From Opitutales bacterium (GTDB taxonomy: Bacteria; Verrucomicrobiota; Verrucomicrobiia; Opitutales; UBA9783): 32,000 nt of DNA. The notes below the pieces were generated by a model. It saw only the letters and a list, made by a program, of their open reading frames with translations, made no database searches and was not told where the DNA came from. The stretch spans positions 12,860 through 44,859 of the forward strand of contig JAKSVZ010000006.1 of the NCBI GenBank assembly GCA_024407725.1. Reading direction: 5' to 3'. Positions 7,286-32,000 of the stretch are shown in pieces. How positions within the stretch are numbered: position 1 is the stretch's first letter; each line of letters begins with the position of its first letter. Position numbers and translations under genes: made by a program.

Positions 7286-8791
7286 TTAGGACAATTCTCG
7301 ATTTCTTTGGATTTGGCGATTCAACCGGAACACCGAAATAACCCACACGGTCGCACAGGTCAAAAACACCACAAACGCATAGATCGCAATGCTTTCGTAG
7401 GTTGCTTTAACACCCGATAAGGCACTTACCAAGGACAACAGAATAACCTGCAAGCCCGAACCAAAAGATTTTCCAAAGCGATAACCAAATACATCGGCAA
7501 TTGCCTTACCCTTTACCTTGAGCTCATCATCCAAGGGGATAAACGCCATCTCTTTGCTCATATCGAAAAAGGACATTTTAAATCCTTTATCAAGCACCAA
7601 CGTTATCAATCCAACATACACAATGGTCGTTTGAATCCCTGCCATCATTCCCACGCTCCCCGATAAGAACTGTTCACCCAAGAACGACAGAAATAAGCAA
7701 ACTCCTCCCACTAACACAACCATAGGAGTTAGCATAGCCCCTACTCCCCATTGGAATCGCCGGAATATGTAGCCGGTAATGAGCACCACAACCATCGAAA
7801 GTACACCGTATATAAACGTGTACGCGCTCATAAAGGTATTGTAATCGTTGATGTTGGGATAAATAACCTTAACCGCATGCTTCCAGAAATTCTCCAAGAT
7901 GTTATCGCAGACGCTGTAACAGAACACCAAGAAAATGAGCAAGCGAACATAATGCGAACGCACAACCACCTTTAAACTGTTCCAAAGACTACTTTTCTTT
8001 TTGTCTTTTACGTGAAATCCGGGCAATTCCGGCTTATTATAAAAGCGTTTGTCGGTCAAAACATGCCGATAAATCCAATGATAAATACACATCGACAAAA
8101 CGCTGGTTACCGTCACCGATCCAATCAACCAATAAAGCGTTATTTGCCAAGGATCCGCACAGGACACCTTTTCGCGGATATTTGAAGCGATAAAACCAAC
8201 CCCTCCTGAAATCGTTACCGCTCCCTGCCCCAACAACAACAAAACCCCATAAATACGCTTTGCTTCCTGCAACTCCGTAATTTGGTTCATAAATTGCCAA
8301 AACGAAAGCGACAAAATAAACGTACTCCACAGCTCTGCAAAGATAAAGAACAGCGCATAAGGCCAAACCCCAATAATCGCAAACGCCAACCCACACGATG
8401 GGAATTGCGCTTGAAGCTGAGCAATGCTATCCGCCGATGGACACACATAATGCTTGAGGGGGTACAAAACCAATACAAATACGACGAAAAAGCTAACAAA
8501 CGACCCCAAAGTAGCATAGTATAAATGCTCGTTCTTCAAGCGATCGCTGATCTTGGTATACGCCAGCATGAATAAAATCGCTGCCGGCGGCACCAAAAAT
8601 AATTTGATAAAGGCAATTGCTTCCGCCCCCACAGCCGTTACCACCAAAGAATCCTTGATGTTTTTGAGGCAATAATGGTTAAAAAGCGAAAAGAATAAAA
8701 TACAGGCTAAAGGAACGATTTTTTTGAGCTCATAAGCATGTACAGGAAAAAAGATTCCCCTAAGCTTTGAAAACTGACCGGTCTCCTCCAC
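7286..8791 (-). CDS. Nucleotide transport protein, ATP/ADP translocase (TLC/NTT) family
   Basis: 501-aa, roughly 12-TM ORF. The N-terminus FSKLRGIFFPVHAYELKKIVPLACILFFSLFNHYCLKNIKDSLVVT is colinear with chlamydial/rickettsial Npt/Tlc N-termini (KLRSFLWPIHxHELKKVLPM...ILRDTKDTLIVT), recalled from memory. The start is GTG at 8791, with no upstream in-frame ATG. Confidence 0.85.
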   Translation of the reverse strand: MEETGQFSKLRGIFFPVHAYELKKIVPLACILFFSLFNHYCLKNIKDSLVVTAVGAEAIAFIKLFLVPPAAILFMLAYTKISDRLKNEHLYYATLGSFVSFFVVFVLVLYPLKHYVCPSADSIAQLQAQFPSCGLAFAIIGVWPYALFFIFAELWSTFILSLSFWQFMNQITELQEAKRIYGVLLLLGQGAVTISGGVGFIASNIREKVSCADPWQITLYWLIGSVTVTSVLSMCIYHWIYRHVLTDKRFYNKPELPGFHVKDKKKSSLWNSLKVVVRSHYVRLLIFLVFCYSVCDNILENFWKHAVKVIYPNINDYNTFMSAYTFIYGVLSMVVVLITGYIFRRFQWGVGAMLTPMVVLVGGVCLFLSFLGEQFLSGSVGMMAGIQTTIVYVGLITLVLDKGFKMSFFDMSKEMAFIPLDDELKVKGKAIADVFGYRFGKSFGSGLQVILLSLVSALSGVKATYESIAIYAFVVFLTCATVWVISVFRLNRQIQRNRELS

Positions 8792-8943
8792 GAGATTTAT
8801 TATTAAGAACTATATTAAGTAGTAAAAATAATACCTCCGTCAATATATTTAACAATCGATGCTTCCCTATTGTTGGAGCATGGTTCTCGATAAATATACT
8901 ACGCGCAACCCGCTTGAATACTTAAGAAAACCACACAAAAAGC

Positions 8944-8972
8944 TTGCCAAACCGCTTAGATTCGCTTATTAT
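8944..8972 (+). promoter_or_regulatory. Sigma70-like promoter box TTGCCA-N17-TATTAT, preceded by AAAAAGC
   Basis: Read directly: TTGCCA at 8944-8949, TATTAT at 8967-8972. It shares the extended box AAAGCTTG(C/T)CA with the sites at 9291 and 9708. No convincing ORF lies downstream. Confidence 0.3.
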
Positions 8973-9293
8973 AAAATATGTAAGCAGAAAATCATGTTCG
9001 TTTCAGAAAATCTTCATATTCGTTTCAGAAAGTTTTATTGATTTCTCTCTAGAATCTTACGGTATGCATTGCAACCAAATGAAGAAAATAGACACACTTT
9101 ATAGGGATTTTGGATCTAATGTTACTCTGTACAAAACGATACAACCTAACTAAAATCCACCCCCAAAAATCTAATTGCTATCTTCAAAATGGGATTACAT
9201 TAATTATAATATACAAATATTTTTGAGTCAAACAAATTTGATACCAACGCTTAAACAACACCCTTATATAGCCCAACTTACAAATAATAAAGC

Positions 9294-9321
9294 TTGCCAT
9301 GGAAACAAATATAGGTATAAT
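9294..9321 (+). promoter_or_regulatory. Strong sigma70-like promoter box TTGCCA-N16-TATAAT
   Basis: Read directly: TTGCCA at 9294-9299, a consensus TATAAT at 9316-9321, preceded by ATAAAGC. It fires into ORF-less AT-rich DNA; only a 22-codon ORF starts at 9326. Confidence 0.35.
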
Positions 9322-9493
9322 ATTTATGTCTATTACAGGCAATTTGTTTAAATATACCTCATCCCAAAAAGACGAAAATAGAAGAACCATCTAATGTAAT
9401 AAAATCTATACACCCTATAAGGTCTTGCTATCGCGTTTCAATAGATAAAACCAAAAACTTTGCCAACCAGATTCAGGATCTTCTTCTAAAAGA

Positions 9494-9554
9494 AATTTAA
9501 CCCAAAAAGCCTAGGACGTCAAGCCAATTCTGGTAGAGAAGCCGGATTTTACAC
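9494..9554 (+). repeat. Copy A of a ~61-nt diverged direct repeat (perfect 16-nt core GTCAAGCCAATTCTGG at 9518-9533)
   Basis: Aligned by eye to 9956-10016. The shared pattern is AATT.A..CAAAAA.CC.AGGA(C/T)GTCAAGCCAATTCTGG.(A/C)GA.AAG(C/A)CGG..TTTT. Confidence 0.6.
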
Positions 9555-9710
9555 AAAAATTCTTCTTATATCCATACTACACCTATAAAATGCCCTTTAA
9601 CCTAAAAGGGCAATGCGCGTTAACAACCGTTAAAGCTCTTTCACTATCGGTACTGCATTTTGCCAGCCCGATCTCTGCCACTCATTCAATCGATTAGCTA
9701 AATAAAAAGC

Positions 9711-9738
9711 TTGTCAATTTAAACGGTATATGGATAAT
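9711..9738 (+). promoter_or_regulatory. Sigma70-like promoter box TTGTCA-N16-GATAAT, preceded by AAAAAGC
   Basis: Read directly: TTGTCA at 9711-9716, GATAAT at 9733-9738. This is the third member of the AAAGCTTG(C/T)CA box series in this spacer. Confidence 0.3.
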
Positions 9739-9955
9739 AAAAATGTTATTTTGGAAAATTTATTTTTAAATGATAAACAAGCCGTGCAAAGCATTTATCT
9801 TAAAAGTCGTTTTCTTCTAGATAATTGAAGTAGATACAAGGATAATCTAATAGTACGTGATAGATGCACAATATATGGATTTATCATCTCGCTTCAGATT
9901 CCAGTAAGTTGAAAAAGCGCATTTTTCAAATCCTTCAATAACAAAGAGCAGGCAT

Positions 9956-10048: not shown

Positions 10049-11040
10049 TCAGCTTAAATCCCGAACAGCAGCACGTGACAAGCGGTCATTAATCGCTTTC
10101 CCTATACCGGAATCTGGCGCCTTTTCCATCCAAATAGATTGCCACTGTTGGTTATCCAAGCGTTGCAAGCAATCAAACAATGAGGCAGCCACTTCCGACA
10201 AATCCCTCTTGGGACTCAAAACAAACTCATTGGACGCCAAAGGACGGCACGGTGGATATAAAAACACATGCGCAGCACCCACTTCAAAAGTCTTTTGGAG
10301 CTCAATCGGCGCCTGAAATTGCTCTAAATGGCGCACTAAATACAGCAGGGTTTTCGGGCTATAATGGCGTTTATAAAGTCCTGGAGACAAATGCACTCCA
10401 TTAACGGGTACGGACGAAAGCGTTTGGATAGGACGCTCCAAAAACGCCTCCAATGCCTCTTGGGTGATGGGTCCTTGGCGCAACAAAGTAGGTTGTTCTT
10501 CCGATACCAAAGAAAGAATGGTTGATTCCAACCCAAAGGAACACGGACCTCCATCGAGTATGTAGGCCACTACATCCCCCATTCCTTGCGCAACATGCTG
10601 AGCCGATGTAGGGCTAACCTGCTGAAAACGGTTAGCGCTCGGGGCCACCAAGGGTTCTCCCATTAACTCAATAACTGCTCGAAATAAAGAACCTGATGGG
10701 CAACGCACCGCCACTGACGGTTGACCTGCCGTTACGCAAGCTGGCACACAGGCTTTTTTTTTAACACCAAGGTCAATGGACCGGGCCAAAAATGCTTTAC
10801 CAAACGCAACACCAAAGGGGTAACCTCAGCCACCAACCGTAACTGTTCCACGCCTAATACGTGAACAATCAATGGATTTTCTTGAGGACGCTGCTTGAGC
10901 GTATAAATTTTCTTAATCGTATCAACCGCAGATAAAGGGGCGGCTAACCCATAAACGGTTTCGGTTGGCAATGCTACCGGTTCTCCTTTGGACAACCACG
11001 CAGCTGCTTCTTTAGGACTTACCCCAACCTGCGCCCGCAT
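10049..11040 (-). pseudogene. tsaC: L-threonylcarbamoyladenylate synthase Sua5/TsaC(YwlC)-type, reading frame broken at an A9 run
   Basis: Two adjacent ORFs in different frames together make one Sua5. The 102-aa N-terminal part (11040-10732) contains ALPTETVYGLAA, KQRPQENPLIVHV and FWPGPLTLVLKKK. The C-terminal part (through 10049) contains VTAGQPSVAVRCP, PLVAPSANRF and the Sua5 C-terminal domain (GIGKAINDRLSRAA). The frames switch inside T9 on the plus strand (10754-10762), which is A9 in the gene sense. A7 or A10 would restore LVLKK(K)ACVPACVTAG. Confidence 0.7.
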
Positions 11041-21415: not shown

Positions 21416-21491
<76 letters not shown>

Positions 21492-21502
21492 ATTCATTTC
21501 AT

Positions 21503-22303
21503 ATGGGAATATGCCGCATAGTGTATTTTGGGGATATCATGGGAGCTACCGGACGCCGTTACCTACAAGCCCAATTGCCTTCCATTAAGCAACAGTATCA
21601 ACCCGATTTTATCTTTGCAAACGCCGAAAACGCGACCAATGGCTTTGGACTCACAAAGGCCATTGCAGAAGAACTGTACGCCTTTGGTATTCAAGGGTTT
21701 TCTCTAGGTAATCATACGTGGGATCAAAAATCCTTTTGGGGCGAAATCGACAGCATTCCTTATGTTTGCAGACCCGCTAATCTCCCCCCAGCATGCCCTG
21801 GGCGTACCCACTTAGTGTTTAACTGGAACGGTGAATCGATCGCAATCATCAACCTCCTAGGTCGCGCCTGCATCAATATGTCGCTGGATTGCCCCTTCCG
21901 TACCGCCCAACACTTGGTCGAATCCTTAAAATCCCAAGGGATTCATAACATTCTTATCGATTTTCACGCCGAAACCACTTCTGAAAAATGCGCCATGGGT
22001 TGGTTTGGCTCCACCTTAGGAGTGTGCGCGGTAATGGGTACCCATACCCATATTCAAACAGCCGACGAACGTATCTTGAACAACCAAACAGCTTTTATCT
22101 GCGATTTGGGCATGTGCGGCGCTGCCAATAGTATTCTTGGGGCAAAAAAAGACCCCATTATCGATAAATTTATCAACGGAAAACCTTGCCGCTACGAAGC
22201 AGCGGATGGTCCTGCTAAAATCAATGGAGCCTTGATTTGTATCGATTGTACCACCCATAAGGCTTTATCCATCGAACGTATCGCCTTAATGGAACCATGC
22301 TAA
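21503..22303 (+). CDS. ymdB: YmdB-like metallophosphoesterase (TIGR00282 family, 2',3'-cyclic-nucleotide phosphodiesterase-like)
   Basis: Sequence features: RIVYFGDIMGATGRRYL, DFIFANAENATNGFGLT, LGNHTWD, IDFHAETTSEK and GTHTHIQTADERIL. I moved the start to ATG 21503, because the track start at 21458 lies inside the tRNA gene. Confidence 0.8.
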   Translation: MGICRIVYFGDIMGATGRRYLQAQLPSIKQQYQPDFIFANAENATNGFGLTKAIAEELYAFGIQGFSLGNHTWDQKSFWGEIDSIPYVCRPANLPPACPGRTHLVFNWNGESIAIINLLGRACINMSLDCPFRTAQHLVESLKSQGIHNILIDFHAETTSEKCAMGWFGSTLGVCAVMGTHTHIQTADERILNNQTAFICDLGMCGAANSILGAKKDPIIDKFINGKPCRYEAADGPAKINGALICIDCTTHKALSIERIALMEPC

Positions 22304-22340
22304 CCTCATCCTTTTAGCGCCAGAAGCGGCGTATCTTCTA

Positions 22341-22356
22341 CCCCCCCCCAAAAAAA
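22341..22356. repeat. Homopolymer pair C9 (22341-22349) and A7 (22350-22356) in the upstream region of OMP paralog 1
   Basis: Read directly. It sits immediately 5' of AAGCTTGCAA, the same box as the promoter-like sites at 8941, 9291 and 9708, and about 90 nt upstream of the ATG at 22442. Confidence 0.9.
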
Positions 22357-22385
22357 GCTTGCAATTTCAGGAAAACGCCCAAAAT

Positions 22386-22445
22386 CTTATAAGGAAACGC
22401 CTTATAAGGAAACGCCTTATAAGGAAACGCCTTATAAGGAAATGA
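22386..22445 (+). repeat. 15-bp tandem repeat x4, unit CTTATAAGGAAA(C/T)G(C/A), ending on the start codon of OMP paralog 1
   Basis: Three perfect units of CTTATAAGGAAACGC at 22386-22430, then CTTATAAGGAAATGA at 22431-22445, whose ATG (22442) is the gene start. Each unit carries the 8-bp palindrome CTTATAAG and a GGA/SD-like AAGGAA. Confidence 0.95.
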
Positions 22446-23404
22446 CTAAAAGAGTAAGCCTATTATTAGCTCTAAGCATTGCTTTAGGAATCCACACCCC
22501 CTGTTATGGTTTGTACGTCATGGTACGGTCGGGGTTCGGAGAGTTAAAAGCCGACAAACAAATCGGTACTTTTCGTCAAACCAATGGTACATTGCCAACG
22601 TGGCATGAAGCAGCTGTAGGTGCTAATGATAACAATTTGCACTTTGACGATTTTCCATCTTCGTCTTTAGTTCGCAGTAGCAACTGTACTAGTGGTAAAT
22701 TGGAATATAAGAATCATCATAACCTATCGGTTGCTTTGGGTGGACGCTTCGATGTTTTTGATATCGGCGCCTTAGGAATTGAACTCGAAATCCTAGGCGG
22801 TTATGCCAATTTCAAAAATAAAACGCGGGATTTCGTTGACTGTAGAAAAGAGTTCAATCAGCCTCAGAACCTAGATTGGAATGACTTGCTCGTAATGAGG
22901 CGTCCAGATTTCCTCATGATTAAGTATCAAAAAATCGGTGTCATGAATCTCGCACAAATCAGACCGATGTACCTATCAAATCAACGGATTGCAGGAGTAC
23001 AGGCCAATTTCTATTGGGAACAGTATATCTTGGATTGGTTATCCGCTGGAATCGGCGGCGGTATCGGGGGCGCTTATATTGCCACCAAGATGAAAACCTA
23101 TGAAACTTGGAGAAGGTTATGGATTTATCGAGATAGACGCGTGCCCCCTGGCAATCACTACTGTTGGGATGCTGTATTCGGTCTTGATTGGAAACAGCGC
23201 ACAAAGTATGCTCATAACCTAGCTCTGTTGTACAATCTTACCCTGTTTGTACGCGCTGAAAAGTTCGAGACACTCTTTGAAGTCGGATTTAGACATATCG
23301 GATTGCATGAGGTGAATGATAACAAAATCTATGGGCATTCAATCAAAAACCTCGCTAACCTTCATTCCGACCAAATCTATTTGGGCGTAGGAAGAACGTT
23401 CTAA
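22442..23404 (+). CDS. Putative beta-barrel outer-membrane protein, paralog 1 of a variable OMP family
   Basis: 320-aa ORF with a signal peptide (MTKRVSLLLALSIALGIHTPCYG). Alternating amphipathic segments are present, along with Gly-rich strands (GIGGGIGGAY) and the canonical OMP C-terminus ...IYLGVGRTF with a terminal Phe. It is a paralog of 31043..31996. No named family could be assigned from memory. Confidence 0.6.
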   Translation: MTKRVSLLLALSIALGIHTPCYGLYVMVRSGFGELKADKQIGTFRQTNGTLPTWHEAAVGANDNNLHFDDFPSSSLVRSSNCTSGKLEYKNHHNLSVALGGRFDVFDIGALGIELEILGGYANFKNKTRDFVDCRKEFNQPQNLDWNDLLVMRRPDFLMIKYQKIGVMNLAQIRPMYLSNQRIAGVQANFYWEQYILDWLSAGIGGGIGGAYIATKMKTYETWRRLWIYRDRRVPPGNHYCWDAVFGLDWKQRTKYAHNLALLYNLTLFVRAEKFETLFEVGFRHIGLHEVNDNKIYGHSIKNLANLHSDQIYLGVGRTF

Positions 23405-23413
23405 GGACGTTTT

Positions 23414-24562
23414 TTATTGTAATTGCGAGAGGATATAATCCGCTCCAGCGCGTGCTGATTGATTTGGATGATACACATGGCGCTGGCGTAAGGATTGGAG
23501 GGTTTGTTTCCAATCATCCGCGTGGTTGATTAAATCCTGCAAAACCGGTACTAGCTGAGGAATAGCATTGAGGGTAATGGGGATGCCAATGGAGCGTCGT
23601 AGTTGCAACTCAATCGGTTCCAATTCCAAAGCGCGCCAGTTGGGATTAAATTCCTTAGGAGGCGTTTCGATAAAGATTACTGGGCGTTCAGTGCCAAAAG
23701 CGTATTCGAATGCAATTCCTGAGCGGTCGGTAATACACACTGCGGCTTCGTACACATTATCTTCCGTCAACAGGTGATCTTCCCAAATAAAATGAGGCAG
23801 AGCTTGTACCTTCTGTTTAATTTGTTGCGCGCGATCAGGACAGCGTTTTAAAAACTCCGGATGTGGGCGAACAACAACGCGATAATCCGTGTTTTTCAAA
23901 GCATCGATGAGGGCATCAATTCCCTGTTCCATTAAATTCCCTGGACCCCAAGTAGGAGCAACCAACACGGTTGTTTGATTGGGAAATTTCGGGGTGTAAT
24001 GTTGAAACTTTTGGTACACAACATCGATACGCGGATAACCCACCGGTAGCAATTGTTTTGCGGGCAAGGCATACACCTGTTCCCGCTTCTTGATTTCTTC
24101 AGTATGATGAGGGCCTACGCAAAAAATGGCATCATAAGCATCAAAAGCGGTTTCGTTGTATTGCAAATGAGTACTGGAAAAAGCGTGAAATAGATAGACG
24201 TAGGATTTTACTTTCTTGGATTTCCGAAACGCGCGTACCTGCGTACTGTTTAAATCGGGTGCAGTCCAAACAAAACACGTTGCATCGATGCGATCCATAA
24301 CCGATTTCAAACAAAGGTCAAAATAGAAGGGATGTAAGCGCTCGTGGTGATGCGTTAAAATCGGATCCTTTGGGTCATTGGTAAGGTAACTGAACTGGAT
24401 GGATGGATTTTTGAGCAGCTCGGTAATAAATGGCTCAAACGTTTGATAATAGATAGCGCTTTCGGAAAAAAACACCAATTGGCGGCAAGGTGCGAAGTCT
24501 TTGCTAAAAAAACGATTGTATGCCTTAAATTCTCCCCATAGACTTAGGATGTGTTGGAACAT
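23414..24562 (-). CDS. TagB/TagF-like CDP-alcohol (glycerophospho)transferase family protein
   Basis: Roughly 382 aa. The pattern resembles the Glyphos_transf family: YVYLFHAFSSTHLQY...YDAIFCVGPHHTEEI, TVLVAPTWGPG (compare ILYAPTWR), VVVRPHPE, and CITDRSGIAFEYAFGTERPVIF (compare ITDYSSxxFDFxxLxKPIIF). I prefer the ATG at 24562; the track start is TTG 24571. Motif recognition only. Confidence 0.5.
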   Translation of the reverse strand: MFQHILSLWGEFKAYNRFFSKDFAPCRQLVFFSESAIYYQTFEPFITELLKNPSIQFSYLTNDPKDPILTHHHERLHPFYFDLCLKSVMDRIDATCFVWTAPDLNSTQVRAFRKSKKVKSYVYLFHAFSSTHLQYNETAFDAYDAIFCVGPHHTEEIKKREQVYALPAKQLLPVGYPRIDVVYQKFQHYTPKFPNQTTVLVAPTWGPGNLMEQGIDALIDALKNTDYRVVVRPHPEFLKRCPDRAQQIKQKVQALPHFIWEDHLLTEDNVYEAAVCITDRSGIAFEYAFGTERPVIFIETPPKEFNPNWRALELEPIELQLRRSIGIPITLNAIPQLVPVLQDLINHADDWKQTLQSLRQRHVYHPNQSARAGADYILSQLQ

Positions 24563-27538
24563 AATTATCAATGTATTATCTTGGGAGCAGGGCGGTCAAA
24601 ACAATTAACCCAAAACCCCGCGCTGGTTAATATTGATCAGGATCAATGTACGTTGGATTGGTTGCTTAAAACCGTAGGGGCTAATGCTTCCAGCAGTATT
24701 TTTGTCGGCGGTTATACCTTTGATGCGATTGCACAACATTATCCGCAGTTGCGTTTCGTTTGTAATGCTCAATGGGCGAAAACTGGCTGTGAAACCTCGC
24801 TGTATCTATCTCAATTTGACCCAAAATTGCCTGCATTTATATGCTATGGGGATATCTTGGTGCGCACTGCATTGGTTGAATCGGTTCTGAAAGCAGCCGA
24901 AGCGGGTGATAACGATGGGGTTATTGCCTTAGATTCCCATACACAGCTATTGGACACCAAAGAAAACTATGAATGCTTCGAAGGAAGCTTAAAAGGGCAA
25001 CGCGGGCAGTATCCCTTTGTTGGATGTGTGTATTTAAAGCCAAAAGCATTGGAATTTTTGCAGAAAAACCAATGTTTTAGCAACAATGGTAAGGCTTACC
25101 GTTTGTCCGACTTGCTGCGTTTTTGCCAAAATAGCTTGCGATTGGCTTGCGTGGATGCGCATGGATTGTGGGCTGAAATCTTACGCCCCATCGATATTAC
25201 CAAGTTTATCCTCACCACAAAATCCGAAACACTCCAAACCTTGCAGCGTCATATTACCCAAGCACGGATGTTGGATCAGGTCCATTTTTCGGTTAAGGAG
25301 TGGCGTGAGCAACCTTCTAGCCTCGTTTCATCTATCCTGCAAAAATTCCAACGGCAACCGTTGGTGGTGCGCAGTAGCTCATTACAGGAAGATAACTTTA
25401 CGCAGGCCAATGCGGGTAAATTCGAAAGTATTTTAAACGTTCAACCGGAAGATGCCGCTATTAAAGCAGCCGTTGATACCGTTATTCAATCCTATGGAAC
25501 GCCGAAGGATGCGGATCAGGTGTTGGTTCAACCCATGCTGCCGAACGTTAAATTGAGCGGGGTTGTTTTTACCCGTAGCCTGCAGCATAGTGCCCCTTAC
25601 TACATTGTGAATTATGATGTGGCAAGCACCGAATCCGTGACCAGTGGTCAAAGTACGCAGGATGTTATCTTTTATCATTGGAAACATGCACCCATTCCGC
25701 CTCATGCGCCTGATTTTTATCCGCGCTTGCAGGCAGCAATTCAAGAAATTGAGCGCCTAACCCAATGGGATGCGTTGGATATTGAGTTCGCGGTTACTCA
25801 GCAAAACGAACTGTATTTGTTCCAAGTACGGCCTTTGGTTGCGCGCCACCTGCAGGAAATTAGCGACGAACAGCTTCAGCAGTGCTTGGATGAGGCTGCA
25901 GATCGCTTCGATTCATTACAAATCCCTCAGGAAGCTATTGCGGGGCAACATACGATTTTCGGGGTTATGCCGGATTGGAACCCAGCTGAAATGATTGGAA
26001 CGAAACCAAATGCGTTAGCGGCTTCCCTCTATCGTACGCTGATCACAGACTCCATTTGGGCGCAACAAAGGGCGGAATTTGGCTATAAAGACGTACGTCC
26101 TTATCCCTTGATGGTAAGCTTTGCGGGTCACCCGTATATTGATGTGCGCGCCAGTATCCATTCGTTTATCCCCAAGTCCGTTCCTACCGAAACAACCGGC
26201 AAGTTGGTCACATTTTTCGTTAACCGTTTAAAACAGCATCCTGAATGGCATGATAAGTTGGAATTTAAGGTGATGCCGACGTGCGACACCTGCGATTTTG
26301 ATGAACGTTGGCACGCGTTGTTAACCCAAGAAGCAGGGTTGTCGGTAGCCGAATATCAACAGTATCGCTCGGCTTTGCACAAAATAACCCATGCTGCTTT
26401 GATTCAATGTGAATCCTACTATCAAGCCATTAAGGCGATAGAAGAGCGTTTTGCACGTATTAAAGCGTCCAAGCAAGCGGATAGCGATAAAATTTACACC
26501 TTGGTTGAAACAGCCAAAGTGGGTACGCTCAACTTTTCCCATTTAGCCCGATGCGGCTTTATTGCGCGTTCTTTGCTGCAGGCCTATGAAGCGCAAGGGA
26601 TTATCACCAAGGAAGAAAGTCAGTCGCTTGTTGACGCTATTCAAACGATTGCGGGACAATTTTTTAAGGATACACAGGCTGCGATTGCGGGTAAAGGTTC
26701 TAAGCAAGCCTGTTTGGATACCTATGGGCATTTGCGCCCCGGAACCTACGATATTACATCGCCAACCTACCGTTCTGATCCTGAAAAATACTTGTTTGTA
26801 AAGAGCACAGTGGAATTGAGTCAGCGTTCCAAAGCAACCTTTAGTTATACCCAGTTGGAATCCGCTTTACAAAAGGACTGGGGAATTTCACTTACCGCAT
26901 TTCGGCAATTTTTACAGTGTGCAATTGCCGGCCGCGAATATTCAAAGTTCATCTTTACGCGCTACAGCTCGCATATTTTGGATTTAATTCAAGCAATCGG
27001 TGCTCGCTATGGGTTTTCAGCGAAAGAATTAGAGCATGTACCTATTACGGTTTTTATGCAACTGCGCGGGGGGATTGATGCGTCAAAAACCTTGAAAGCT
27101 TTACTGCAGGCAACCATCGAACAAGGCGCGTTGGATTACTGTTTCGCTCAGGCCATAGAATTGCCTCCGTTGATTACCAACAAGAGCGATTTTTATGCCT
27201 TTTTTGTGCCTAAATCCCTGCCGAATTTCATTGGAAATCAAAAGGCCGAAGCACCCCTGATTTACCTCAAGAATTCTGATCAGGCGGATGGTGCAGCTTT
27301 GCGCGATAAGATTGTTTTGATTGAAAAAGCGGATCCTGGGTTCGACTGGATTCTCAATTATGCGATTGCTGGGTTGATTACCGCTTATGGAGGTCCCAAT
27401 TCCCATATGGCCATCCGTTCGGCAGAATGTCACTTGCCGGCAGCAATTGGAATTGGAGAAGCGTTGTTTGACTCGCTCAAAACAGCTCAGTTGGTTCACT
27501 TAGATTGCGCCAATCACACGTTAAAACGCATCCGATAA
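24551..27538 (+). CDS. Fusion protein: N-terminal nucleotidyltransferase domain plus a PEP-utilizing-enzyme-type kinase (ATP-grasp PPDK_N-like domain and C-terminal phosphohistidine swivel domain); Cj1418 / rifampin-phosphotransferase-like architecture
   Basis: 995-aa ORF.
- Residues ~1-220: CIILGAGRSKQL (a GxGxR NTP loop) and ICYGDIL, paralogous to the ITYGDII of the downstream 28184 gene.
- Residues ~225-460: TTKSETLQTLQ, PLVVRSSSLQEDNFTQANAGKFESILNV (compare PpsA/PPDK VAVRSSATAEDLPxASFAGQ) and LDIEFAV...LYLFQVRP.
- C-terminus: VLIEKADPGFDWILNYAIAGLITAYGGPNSHMAIRSAECHLPAAIG, the PEP-utilizers mobile domain with the catalytic His.
- No PEP/pyruvate-binding TIM-barrel domain is present.
- Start is GTG 24551 or TTG 24554. 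Confidence 0.7.
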   Translation: MLEHNYQCIILGAGRSKQLTQNPALVNIDQDQCTLDWLLKTVGANASSSIFVGGYTFDAIAQHYPQLRFVCNAQWAKTGCETSLYLSQFDPKLPAFICYGDILVRTALVESVLKAAEAGDNDGVIALDSHTQLLDTKENYECFEGSLKGQRGQYPFVGCVYLKPKALEFLQKNQCFSNNGKAYRLSDLLRFCQNSLRLACVDAHGLWAEILRPIDITKFILTTKSETLQTLQRHITQARMLDQVHFSVKEWREQPSSLVSSILQKFQRQPLVVRSSSLQEDNFTQANAGKFESILNVQPEDAAIKAAVDTVIQSYGTPKDADQVLVQPMLPNVKLSGVVFTRSLQHSAPYYIVNYDVASTESVTSGQSTQDVIFYHWKHAPIPPHAPDFYPRLQAAIQEIERLTQWDALDIEFAVTQQNELYLFQVRPLVARHLQEISDEQLQQCLDEAADRFDSLQIPQEAIAGQHTIFGVMPDWNPAEMIGTKPNALAASLYRTLITDSIWAQQRAEFGYKDVRPYPLMVSFAGHPYIDVRASIHSFIPKSVPTETTGKLVTFFVNRLKQHPEWHDKLEFKVMPTCDTCDFDERWHALLTQEAGLSVAEYQQYRSALHKITHAALIQCESYYQAIKAIEERFARIKASKQADSDKIYTLVETAKVGTLNFSHLARCGFIARSLLQAYEAQGIITKEESQSLVDAIQTIAGQFFKDTQAAIAGKGSKQACLDTYGHLRPGTYDITSPTYRSDPEKYLFVKSTVELSQRSKATFSYTQLESALQKDWGISLTAFRQFLQCAIAGREYSKFIFTRYSSHILDLIQAIGARYGFSAKELEHVPITVFMQLRGGIDASKTLKALLQATIEQGALDYCFAQAIELPPLITNKSDFYAFFVPKSLPNFIGNQKAEAPLIYLKNSDQADGAALRDKIVLIEKADPGFDWILNYAIAGLITAYGGPNSHMAIRSAECHLPAAIGIGEALFDSLKTAQLVHLDCANHTLKRIR

Positions 27539-28970: not shown

Positions 28971-31046
28971 ATGAGGAACATTACTAAGAAAGCAACAACC
29001 GTCCATGGTAAAACAGCGAAGAAAACTTTAAAGCCGTCCGCTAAAAAACCCTGCATCCGTAGTAAATCCACCAAGCAGGTAAGTGCTGCCAAATTAACTT
29101 CTGTTATCGATTGCCATACTGCTTGGAAATTAGCCAATCAGGCTGATTTGCTCGCCTTCCAACAAGGGCACTGCAATCGCATTTATAACGTACTTGGTTC
29201 TCATCCCGCCACTGAAGAAGGGAAAGCAGGCTATCACTTTGCGGTATGGGCGCCGAATGCAAAATCTGTGTCTGTTGTAGGGGATTTTAATCAATGGGAT
29301 GCGAAGAAAAATCCCATGTACCTACACAATCTTTTTGGGGTATGGGAAGTATTTGTTCCTGATGTTCAAGTAGGACAAAAATACAAATATGCCGTTGTCG
29401 GATATAACCAACAATTGCAGTTGAAAGCCGATCCGTACGGTAATTGGGGCGAACATACCGATTCACACGCGTCCATCCTATGCCCCGCCTTAAACCGATA
29501 CGTGTGGAACGACAATGCGTGGATGCAAAAGCGCGCTAAACATAATTGCCAAGAACAGCCTTTGTCGATCTATGAGCTGCACATTGATTCTTGGCGCCAC
29601 AATGCAAAAGGCAATCCGCTCACTTATCGAGAATTGGCTCAGCAACTCGTTCTGTATTTAAAAGCAACAGAATTTACGCATGTTGAATTGATGCCGATCA
29701 TGGAGCACCCCTTTACCGATTCTTGGGGCTATCAAATCACTGGGTTTTATGCACCCACCTCGCGTTATGGGACACCAGAAGACTTTCAGTATTTAATCGA
29801 TACGCTGCATCAAGCCAATATTGGCGTCATTCTTGATTGGGTACCGGGTCACTTCCCAACCGACGATTTTGGTTTAGCGCGCTTCGATGGTACCGCTTTG
29901 TATGAACATGCCGATCCGCGCCAAGGCATCCATCCTGATTGGGGAACCTACATCTTTAATTATGGACGCAACGAGGTACGTAATTTCCTCATCAGCAACG
30001 CTCTGTTTTGGATTGAGCAATTCCATATCGATGGCCTACGTTTGGATGCGGTTGCTTCCATGCTTTACTTGGATTATTCTCGAAAACCTAATGCGTGGAT
30101 TCCCAACCAATACGGCGGTAAGGAGAATATCGAAGCGATTAATTTCTTACGCGAATTCAACAACATTATCCATTCGTCCTATCCAGGTATTTTATCAATC
30201 GCTGAAGAATCAACTTCCTTTGGGCGCGTTTCCCAACCAACTCAATCGTACGGCTTGGGCTTCGATTTCAAATGGAATATGGGTTGGATGCACGATGTCT
30301 CCAATTACTGCAAATTAGACCCGATTTTCCGCAAATATCATCACAACAAAATGACCTTTGCTATGCTCTATCAGCGCTCAGAGCATTTCATCAACGTCTT
30401 TTCACACGATGAAGTGGTGTACGGTAAGGCTTCGATGGTACAGAAAATGGGTTCGCCGTATTTAAGCGATAAACTGAGTACCTTGCGCGCTCTTTATACC
30501 TTTATGTGGGGATGGCCGGGCAAAAAAACGCTCTTTATGGGCAATGAATTCGCTCAGCTCGATGAATGGGATTTCCACAAAGCTTTGTCTTGGGAGTTAT
30601 TGGAAAAACCAGAACATCAAGGAATGTTGCGCTTAATCTTCGATTTAAATCACCTCTACCGCACGCTGCGTTTTTGGCACGAAGGAGATATGTACGAAGG
30701 TAGTTTTTCTTGGATCAACCCAGAAGATTGCGATAACAGTGTATTTTCATTTATACGCAAAAGCGCTTCCTCAACCCATACGCTCTTGTTTATCTCGAAC
30801 TTTACTCCCATTGAGCACGCGAATTACGAATGCGGGGTTCCTTTTGCCGGTACTTGGAATGAACTGCTTAACTCCGATAGTACATCCTACGGCGGACTTA
30901 ATCGTGGAAATTTAGGCTCTGTAACTGCTGTCAAGCAGGAACGCGACCTACAACCCTGCACAATTAGTTTATATCTACCTCCGCTGAGCACTATTATCTT
31001 AGAGTTTAAACGTACTCATACAAAAGCATGCGATAAAAGCGCTTAG
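28971..31046 (+). CDS. glgB: 1,4-alpha-glucan branching enzyme GlgB (GH13)
   Basis: Sequence features: YHFAVWAPNAKSVSVVGDFNQWD, THVELMPIMEHPFTDSWGYQITGFYAP, DWVPGHFP, GLRLDAVASMLY, AEESTSF, FSHDEVV. I prefer the ATG at 28971; the track start is TTG 28923. There is a ~55-aa Lys/Thr/Ser-rich N-terminal extension, unless an internal TTG is the true start. Confidence 0.9.
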   Translation: MRNITKKATTVHGKTAKKTLKPSAKKPCIRSKSTKQVSAAKLTSVIDCHTAWKLANQADLLAFQQGHCNRIYNVLGSHPATEEGKAGYHFAVWAPNAKSVSVVGDFNQWDAKKNPMYLHNLFGVWEVFVPDVQVGQKYKYAVVGYNQQLQLKADPYGNWGEHTDSHASILCPALNRYVWNDNAWMQKRAKHNCQEQPLSIYELHIDSWRHNAKGNPLTYRELAQQLVLYLKATEFTHVELMPIMEHPFTDSWGYQITGFYAPTSRYGTPEDFQYLIDTLHQANIGVILDWVPGHFPTDDFGLARFDGTALYEHADPRQGIHPDWGTYIFNYGRNEVRNFLISNALFWIEQFHIDGLRLDAVASMLYLDYSRKPNAWIPNQYGGKENIEAINFLREFNNIIHSSYPGILSIAEESTSFGRVSQPTQSYGLGFDFKWNMGWMHDVSNYCKLDPIFRKYHHNKMTFAMLYQRSEHFINVFSHDEVVYGKASMVQKMGSPYLSDKLSTLRALYTFMWGWPGKKTLFMGNEFAQLDEWDFHKALSWELLEKPEHQGMLRLIFDLNHLYRTLRFWHEGDMYEGSFSWINPEDCDNSVFSFIRKSASSTHTLLFISNFTPIEHANYECGVPFAGTWNELLNSDSTSYGGLNRGNLGSVTAVKQERDLQPCTISLYLPPLSTIILEFKRTHTKACDKSA

Positions 31047-31996
31047 AACGTTCTTCCTACGCCCAAATAGATTTGATCGGAATGCATATTCGCCAACTTC
31101 GGAATTTCATACCCGTAGCATTTAGCACCAAACATCTGATGCAAGCCGATATGGCGATAGCCGACCTCAAATAACGTTTCAAATTTTTCTGCGCGTACAA
31201 ACAGCGTAAAGTTATAGAGTAACGAGCCGGTATGGACGTACTTACGACGTTGGATGAATTCCCCTGCATGTCCCCAATAATACTGTCCTTGTGGTATTCC
31301 ATCTTCCCACTCCAAATATTGATAGTATTCCCGAGTGGTAAATTTGGTACAGACATAAGCGCCGCCAATCCCCCCCCCGATACCAACGGATAGGTAATCA
31401 AGTAGATAGTGTTCCCAATAGATATTGAACTGAGCACCTGCAATCCGTTGGTTCTTAAGCCACATGAAAGTCATGTTACGGCTAATTTCTTCTGCTGCGA
31501 TATTCAAGGTACGGTCTCGCATTAAGATAAGATCAGGAGTCTCAACGATGTATGTATCTATCGTTGATAGCTTAGTTGTACGCTTTGAGGGGGTATAAGC
31601 ACCTAGGATTTCTACTTCCAATCCCAATGCGCCAATATCAAATACATCAATTCGTCCGCCCAACGCCACCGATAGGTTTTTATGATCCTTGTATTTGAAT
31701 TGACCAGAAGTACAGTCGGTATTTCGACTCAAAATGCTAGCACCATCAGTACCCAGATGTAGTACGGGAGGATTAAACACGTCTCCGTCTTCAAACCACG
31801 TCATTTCTCCGTTTTTTTTCTCGAACTTTCCGACATCATCGGCTTTTAACTCTCCAAACCCCGATCGTACCATGACGTACAGACCATAACAAGGGGTGTG
31901 GATTCCTAAAGCAATGCTTAGGGCTAATAATAAACTTATTCTTTTAGTCATTTCCTTATAAGTCATTTCCTTATAAGTCATTTCCTTATAAGTCAT
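31043..31996 (-). CDS. Putative beta-barrel outer-membrane protein, paralog 2, with an N-terminal (MTYKE)n repeat encoded by a 15-bp tandem repeat
   Basis: 317-aa ORF reaching the window edge. After (MTYKE)x3, the sequence MTKRISLLLALSIALGIHTPCYGLYVMVRSGFGELKAD is 37/38 identical to paralog 1, and the C-terminus is the same (...HSDQIYLGVGRTF). The signal-peptide-proximal ATG is at 31951. Further in-frame ATGs lie at 31966, 31981 and 31996, and the repeat may continue beyond 32000. Confidence 0.6.
   Translation of the reverse strand: MTYKEMTYKEMTYKEMTKRISLLLALSIALGIHTPCYGLYVMVRSGFGELKADDVGKFEKKNGEMTWFEDGDVFNPPVLHLGTDGASILSRNTDCTSGQFKYKDHKNLSVALGGRIDVFDIGALGLEVEILGAYTPSKRTTKLSTIDTYIVETPDLILMRDRTLNIAAEEISRNMTFMWLKNQRIAGAQFNIYWEHYLLDYLSVGIGGGIGGAYVCTKFTTREYYQYLEWEDGIPQGQYYWGHAGEFIQRRKYVHTGSLLYNFTLFVRAEKFETLFEVGYRHIGLHQMFGAKCYGYEIPKLANMHSDQIYLGVGRTF
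31370..31378. repeat. G9 homopolymer (C9 on the plus strand) inside the coding sequence of OMP paralog 2
   Basis: Read directly. The gene-sense sequence ATC GGG GGG GGG ATT encodes the IGGGI of GIGGGIGGAY. Paralog 1 encodes the same peptide with an interrupted sequence (ATC GGC GGC GGT ATC). Confidence 0.9.
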
Positions 31997-32000
31997 TTCC
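31948..32000 (-). repeat. 15-bp tandem repeat (at least 3.5 units visible, truncated by the window end), gene-sense unit CTTATAAGGAAATGA
   Basis: Plus-strand units TCATTTCCTTATAAG at 31948-31962, 31963-31977 and 31978-31992, plus a partial unit at 31993-32000. Every unit contains an in-frame ATG. Confidence 0.95.

Follow-up and report, generated by a model that had tools for sequence, protein, structure and literature searches.

We found that a 60-bp array running into the start codon of a gene for a predicted outer-membrane protein is a copy-number-polymorphic minisatellite. The array lies in a 32,000-nucleotide stretch of DNA from an Opitutales bacterium (hereafter the window), upstream of the first of two paralogous genes, paralog 1 and paralog 2. 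Relatives that have a single unit (L006, L027) identify the repeat as a duplicated 15-bp segment that ends in the start codon. We regard this descriptive part as solid. We also propose that the leader minisatellite tunes expression without altering the mature protein, and we put the chance that this functional part is right at about even.

The array before paralog 1 consists of four head-to-tail 15-bp units, the last of which bears the ATG. This had been the original prediction, and both the sequence and Tandem Repeats Finder agree with it (22386-22442, period 15, 3.8 copies, 100% matches, score 114). The arrays and the two genes are laid out in the window as follows:

22386..22445, + strand: array of four 15-bp units (three copies of CTTATAAGGAAACGC and one of CTTATAAGGAAATGA), with the start codon within the last unit
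22386-22400, 22401-22415 and 22416-22430: the three units CTTATAAGGAAACGC; 22431-22445: the unit CTTATAAGGAAATGA
22400-22409, 22415-22424 and 22430-22439, no strand: three perfect 10-bp palindromes, CCTTATAAGG, at the unit junctions
22442..23404, + strand: paralog 1 CDS, 320 aa, with a signal peptide at ~22442-22510, a predicted beta-barrel and the C-terminus ...GVGRTF
31043..31951, - strand: paralog 2 CDS, counted from the family-conserved ATG (31951)
31948..32000, - strand: paralog 2 array, at least 3.7 units, all CTTATAAGGAAATGA, with an in-frame ATG in each unit (MTYKE repeats)

The last unit of the first array provides the ATG at 22442-22444, which opens the ORF at 22442-23404. The repeated sequence is nearly confined to the two arrays. 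The 12-mer CTTATAAGGAAA, with up to one mismatch allowed, has eight matches in the window compared to 0.23 expected, a number reached by none of 100 shuffles, and seven of the eight matches fall inside the arrays. Each unit had been described as containing an 8-bp palindrome. This is correct for the first unit of the paralog 1 array, which has only CTTATAAG (22386-22393), but the internal junctions carry the 10-bp version.

The upstream units are in frame with paralog 1, as noted previously, and the frame reads SYKE TPYKE TPYKE TPYKE M. No ATG, GTG or TTG is present in this frame between the paralog 1 ATG and the stop codon at 22301 that terminates the preceding gene, so the upstream units of paralog 1 cannot be translated. 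A translated repeat in paralog 1 was rejected for this reason. The units of paralog 2 differ from those of paralog 1 solely in having ATGA in place of ACGC, again as predicted, and the open frame of paralog 2 runs upstream through its array to 31996 and beyond. The database protein for paralog 2 (P0009) begins mid-codon at the contig edge. Because the end of the contig and window cuts this array, its copy number is bounded only from below, at 3.7 units or more.

Each unit has one AAGGA sequence; relative to the paralog 1 ATG, these are located at -6, -21, -36 and -51. The gap between the nearest AAGGA and the ATG is 1 nt, and that for the next box is 16 nt. Spacing between the Shine-Dalgarno sequence and the ATG is 4-7 nt at groES, groEL and rpsB (sister genome). 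The last unit is therefore a poorly placed Shine-Dalgarno sequence, its 1-nt gap being far below that range. The Shine-Dalgarno element previously proposed for each unit is thus present as a motif, but is weak as a ribosome-binding sequence this close to the ATG.

The array is one part of a larger 5' cassette shared by 15 related genes. The order of the parts is a C tract, an A tract, GCTTGCAA, a spacer of 18-21 nt, the array, the ATG and a near-identical signal peptide. A tandem repeat is thereby located between a promoter-like box and the ATG of a predicted surface-protein gene. Upstream of the paralog 1 array the parts are:

22318..22340, + strand: segment like the sequence 3' of tRNA-Ser(GGA) in tRNA-adjacent cassette copies
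22341..22356, + strand: C9 tract and then an A7 tract that adjoins the box
22357..22364, + strand: GCTTGCAA box with a -35-like TTGCAA, identical in 14 of the 15 related cassettes
22365..22385, + strand: 21-nt spacer, variable except for its ...AAAaCCCCa.AAT-like 3' part

The distance from the box to the first unit is 21 nt in most loci, 20 nt in two and 18 nt in one. The last 15 bp before the CDS are invariant in all loci of the 15-bp type, and 11 or more of the 21 spacer positions vary. Tract lengths range from C6 to C10 (the C tract is absent in some relatives) and from A5 to A9, and the C and A homopolymers could be a second variable element in the cassette.

A real tRNA-Ser is found upstream of the cassette in L002 and L019. 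Comparison of the copies suggests that the cassette spread from a tRNA-adjacent master copy. Remnants resembling the 3' end and trailer of tRNA-Ser(GGA) are present at 22318-22340 in the window, 490-527 in L002, 9895-9925 in L019 and 2290-2320 in L021. Nothing matching the cassette turned up in phage or plasmid collections, which leaves a mobile-element origin unsupported.

Copy number was compared across the 15 related loci, several of which have arrays that end at contig ends. The earlier suggestion of a copy-number-variable element was borne out: one, two, three, four, five and six units were all seen, and in two cases orthologous loci have different numbers (2 vs 4 and 4 vs 2). The distribution is:

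1 unit: L006
2 units: L012/L013 and L029
3 units: L018
4 units: paralog 1 of the window, L005 and L014
5 units: L002
6 units: two genes in L015, one of them also in L016

Internal units have the ACGC or ACAC form, and ATGA is kept only in paralog 2. A sister lineage has a 16-bp unit, CTTTATAAGGAAATAA, present once in L027 and twice in L019/L020. The MAG MJ218 (L003) has four copies of ACTTCTTACATAGGT followed by ACTTCTTATATGAGA, and the ATG is found only in the last copy.

The two orthologous pairs differ in character. L012/L013 and L014 are the same locus and have a divergent upstream gene in common. They have two and four units, respectively, a difference of exactly 30 bp, and identity between them is 95-100% over the flank and the first ~620 nt of the gene. 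L005 (four units) and L029 (two units) are also the same locus, with flanks that are 92-98% identical. These two differ as well in the lengths of the C and A tracts, in the spacer and in the variable regions of the gene. Because these parts differ along with the array, the L005/L029 difference is best described as exchange of the whole cassette. Some differences in copy number may have arisen in this way and not by local slippage.

At the window's own locus the gene order is PGI, an exonuclease-family gene, tRNA-Met, YmdB and the outer-membrane protein gene. L021 has at least 4.3 units at this locus, and the sister lineage has a single 16-bp unit there. Each of the contigs with an identical YmdB protein breaks no more than 150 nt past the YmdB gene. 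Their tracts are C6-C10 and A7-A9, with lengths that differ even among these contigs. The tRNA-Met (21416-21491) overlaps the start of the mechanically called YmdB ORF (TTG at 21458). The real YmdB start is at ~21503, because the database protein has 266 aa.

Three loci had the same copy number in two independent samples (L015 and L016, L012 and L013, L019 and L020). On this scale the tract is thus not hypermutable, although it is polymorphic. With units of 15 or 16 bp in one to six copies, it falls outside the short unit (1-9 nt) and many copies that define a contingency tract, and slippage of a 15-bp unit in six or fewer copies is expected to be slower than at classical tracts of 1-7 nt.

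Contigs of many independent assemblies end in the cassette or array (the window end at 32000, L003, L004 and L021-L026). The family is systematically fragmented in MAGs because the multi-copy cassette is longer than the assembly k-mer. Contig breaks at the arrays are explained equally well by the multi-copy cassette and by change of array length within a population.

The origin of the repeat can be read from the loci with one unit. At L006 the single unit reads ...AAT CTTATAAGGAAATGA CTAAAAG. Since the one-unit state is CTTATAAGGAAATGA or its 16-bp equivalent, the first duplication copied the ATG, and the ACGC and ACAC forms are therefore derived. Loss of the ATG in these forms is due to a T-to-C change, and an A-to-C change in the last position makes the palindrome at the junction 10 bp long instead of 8 bp. 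The array had previously been suggested to be a relic of an ATG-containing form. This is plausible, as one-unit loci carry the ATG form and it is still seen in paralog 2.

Different samples have different alleles of the barrel gene at one and the same genomic locus. In L014, the last third of the gene matches other paralogs at 90-98%, L005 and L029 have common flanks but different variable regions, and P0203 combines the upstream flank of L012 with another allele. These observations point to recombination or gene conversion between paralogs. In our model, units would be gained and lost by slippage between perfect repeats combined with exchange of cassettes between paralogs.

The proteins encoded downstream of the cassette belong to a family of predicted outer-membrane beta-barrels. 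The DNA sequences of paralog 1 and paralog 2 are 85-95% identical over the first ~120 nt of the gene and 37-50% identical in the variable parts. A protein search found 60 clusters, nearly all unnamed, with many members per MAG and from few MAGs (labelled Opitutales, Opitutae or Verrucomicrobia). In all members, the signal peptide is nearly the same (MTKR[VI]SLL..ALSIALGIHTPCYG), blocks of conserved strands occur along with variable stretches, and the C-terminus is ...GRTF or ...GRSF/GRKF. The AlphaFold model (pLDDT 83, pTM 0.77) has an N-terminal helix followed by 14 strands. The top Foldseek matches in the PDB were all outer-membrane barrels (OmpA, NspA, Ail, OmpX, OpcA and FadL), with modest TM-scores. 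A signal peptide, an all-beta barrel model and a C-terminal aromatic residue are thus all present.

No known family was recognized by sequence. There was no relevant Pfam match at E <= 1 for any of 20 members, and neither paralog matched a Pfam family. A sequence search of the PDB gave no match for the paralogs, and there was no significant sequence-profile match to known barrel families (OmpA, OmpX/Ail, Opa and OMP_b-brl). The label of outer-membrane protein given in the original prediction is consequently supported by architecture (the model, the fold matches and the ends of the protein) but not by membership in a known family. A scan of JGI metagenomes with the protein alignment found no relative, the DNA pattern TATAAGGAAATGACTAAAAG gave just two chance matches, both in unrelated genes, and a scan of GTDB genomes found one genome only, UBA3869.

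To place the array relative to transcription, we considered the sequences upstream of it. A scan for sigma-70 promoters found no canonical promoter in the window or in L018. TATAAG had been proposed as a working -10 element. We rejected this, as TATAAG is 21-23 nt from the conserved TTGCAA. Sigma-54-like and sigma-32-like readings of GCTTGCAA...CCCCAGAAT, made by eye, fit too poorly to claim. A resemblance of CCTTATAAGG to the CArG box (it fits CC(A/T)6GG) was set aside because it has no basis in bacteria.

Strong conservation upstream of the array is limited to the A tract together with GCTTGCAA. The rpsB gene of the sister genome has a similar upstream layout, GCTTGCAT...AAAAT. In L018, a terminator-like hairpin and T run directly precede the cassette and end ~90 nt from the ATG, and transcription of that gene would therefore start inside the cassette. 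The distance from the box to the first unit is near-constant and the length of the array is variable, which argues that any -10 element is located no further downstream than the first unit, and that the extra units are located downstream of the -10 region and the transcription start, that is, in the mRNA leader.

The RNA of the window's array is predicted to fold into a nested rod (-25.8 kcal/mol, z = -5.2), and the predicted rod grows by ~15 kcal/mol for every two units. By our own reading of a single case, the 16-bp unit is not a palindrome in DNA and its RNA is fully self-complementary through G-U pairs. Predicted accessibility of the start region shifts little with copy number (0.16-0.46), and when one to eight units were folded, the effect of odd versus even numbers of units on accessibility of the start site was small. 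Because accessibility shifts so little, an effect through stability of the 5' rod or length of the leader is as likely as an effect on translation. A search of Rfam gave only sub-threshold chance matches (mir-515, 22.5 bits vs a threshold of 68; mmgR, 18.8 vs 41).

We propose that copy number would set the length of the leader, from a few nt with one unit to ~80 nt with six, and would also determine how many AAGGAA boxes the leader has and how large its self-complementary 5' rod is. Stability of the mRNA, initiation of translation, or both, would be shifted for each paralog separately. The array would then act as a graded rheostat and not as an ON/OFF switch that works by frameshift. With a period of 15, and with everything before the signal-peptide cleavage site removed (also in paralog 2), there is no frameshift and the mature protein is unchanged. 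A more elaborate version is that each barrel gene has its own two-part dial, made up of the C and A homopolymers and the 15-nt RNA rod, that is set independently and heritably at the level of mRNA stability or translation; we think this version rather unlikely. To our knowledge, a leader-RNA rheostat built from duplicated start-codon segments has not been described before.

Several other explanations might account for the array. It might be a neutral by-product, in which a leader and start segment that is prone to slippage expands, arrays spread by gene conversion, and copy number has no selected effect. The unit is flanked by microhomology (CTTATAAG and CTAAAAG) and contains palindromic hairpins, identity of the units within each array suggests that they were duplicated recently, and the cassette has been homogenised across paralogs and exchanged between loci. 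Genes with one unit exist, and the small predicted effect of copy number on start-site accessibility is what such a by-product would show. However, arrays with different units and periods are found in three lineages, where they arose or were retained, and most of the paralogs seen have more than one unit. In addition, the upstream ATGs are gone in all arrays seen but one, which suggests selection on an array that was kept. On balance, we consider neutrality a serious rival, if less probable than tuning of expression. Errors of assembly, in which a repeated cassette was put together wrongly so as to create the array or its copy number, would fit with the many contig breaks in or near the cassette that are listed above. 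Arrays of 30-90 bp are nonetheless shorter than the reads and shorter than the k of 127-141 used in related assemblies, independent assemblers and samples gave the same array structure, and copy numbers were identical in three independent sample pairs. We therefore consider an artefact very improbable.

The array might also be a set of binding sites, in DNA or in RNA. A dimeric DNA-binding regulator could read CCTTATAAGG every 15 bp and repress or activate the whole family. Such an operator array would account for perfect palindromes of 8-10 bp that are regularly spaced and overlap the initiation region, for a symmetry that is intact in the window and in most close relatives, and for a motif that is kept directly before the ATG in all close relatives and is absent elsewhere in the 32-kb window. 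It accounts less well for the broken DNA symmetry in CTAATAAGG (L024), CTTTATAAGG (L019/L027) and the MJ218 unit (L003), for the ATGA units of paralog 2, which carry just the 8-bp version, and for genes with one unit. Furthermore, a spacing of 15 bp puts successive sites on opposite faces of the helix, and no candidate regulator adjoins the genes in the window. We judge an operator array to be improbable, and sites that act in the RNA to be less probable still. For the latter, the AAGGAA/GGA boxes would bind a CsrA-like protein or serve as tandem standby sites for ribosomes, as might be expected from the regular AAGGA in each unit (-6, -21, -36, -51) and from the use of Shine-Dalgarno sequences at highly expressed genes in this lineage. 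But the GGA sequences are in stems of the predicted fold and not in hairpin loops, gaps of 1 and 16 nt between box and ATG are poor for Shine-Dalgarno function, and there is no CsrA gene within the 32-kb window.

Our preferred reading, a leader minisatellite that may tune expression, resembles several known systems in part. The Opa proteins of Neisseria are 8-stranded barrels with a CTCTT repeat in the region encoding the signal peptide, and this 5-bp unit switches the reading frame ON or OFF. Like the Opa genes, the genes described here are predicted to encode multi-copy small barrels with conserved ends and hypervariable loops, recombine between copies, and have a tandem repeat at the 5' end; the fold search also retrieved NspA and OpcA, which are related barrels. 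Unlike in Opa, the period is 15 (or 16 in the sister lineage, where the repeat precedes the ATG), so that no frameshift is possible, and there is no sequence similarity. The ompA mRNA of E. coli has a 5'-terminal stem-loop that prolongs the life of the mRNA. If the array is transcribed from the first unit, as the predicted start would have it, then it too would place a stable 5' hairpin on the mRNA of an outer-membrane protein. The ompA stem-loop is a single fixed structure, whereas the array is a repeat of variable length.

Other comparable repeats lie upstream of the coding sequence. In Mycoplasma gallisepticum, each vlhA promoter has a (GAA)n repeat ~40 nt upstream of the transcription start, and only genes with 12 copies are ON (PMC6258824). 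The likeness is in a large variable surface family with a promoter cassette for each gene and a repeat length that differs among paralogs and among orthologs of different strains. In contrast to the 3-bp vlhA repeat, the unit here is 15 bp and palindromic, is located between the promoter-like box and the ATG, and includes a copied start codon; vlhA proteins are lipoproteins and those described here are predicted beta-barrels. Graded mRNA levels are associated with a 4-bp repeat, AGAT(n), upstream of the Moraxella catarrhalis uspA2 ORF (PMC7302503) and with 7-bp repeats upstream of the Haemophilus influenzae hmw1A and hmw2A ORFs (PMC2424069). These are likewise heteropolymeric tandem repeats upstream of a surface-protein ORF. 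They are present in 10-30 copies and their effect on expression was measured, whereas the array described here has one to six copies and a proposed effect, and it abuts and includes the start codon. Common to the vlhA, uspA2, hmwA and Opa genes and those described here is a variable 5' repeat on surface-protein genes that differs in length between strains. The array is set apart by its unit length (15/16 bp), low copy number, origin from the start codon, palindromic character and lack of a frameshift.

The window also contains genes that bear on the lifestyle of the organism. A TLC ATP/ADP transporter is encoded at 7286-8791 (- strand; E 2.4e-137), and in L018 a TLC gene (8319-9851) adjoins another paralog. 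LptD is also encoded in the window. Possession of a transporter of this kind is considered a hallmark of obligate intracellular life (10.1101/2025.07.29.667580). The TLC gene is a hint that this uncultured Opitutales lineage may live as an energy parasite and depend on a host. Judging from sample names, the habitat is probably the gut, likely the rumen; a preprint on symbionts of rumen ciliates does not mention the lineage. Two further genes in the window are worth noting. A Sua5/TsaC-type gene (10049-11040, - strand) is split into two overlapping ORFs, of which 10732-11040 encodes the N-terminal part and 10049-10789 the remainder; the split could be due to a frameshift, a pseudogene or a sequencing error. 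An ORF of 995 aa (24551-27538, + strand) combines a MobA-like nucleotidyl-transferase with PPDK N-terminal and PEP-utilising mobile domains in an unusual fusion, and adjoins a glycerophosphotransferase-like gene.

Our analysis brings to light an unannotated, many-copy, recombining family of predicted outer-membrane proteins. Known cases of repeat-based surface variation are mainly from human and animal pathogens, and we know of no previous description in Verrucomicrobiota. If copy number sets expression, then repeat-based surface variation would extend to this phylum. It would do so with a longer, palindromic unit derived from the start codon, and with a mechanism in the leader RNA that spares the protein. 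The presence of an ATP/ADP transporter would fit with life in close contact with host cells.
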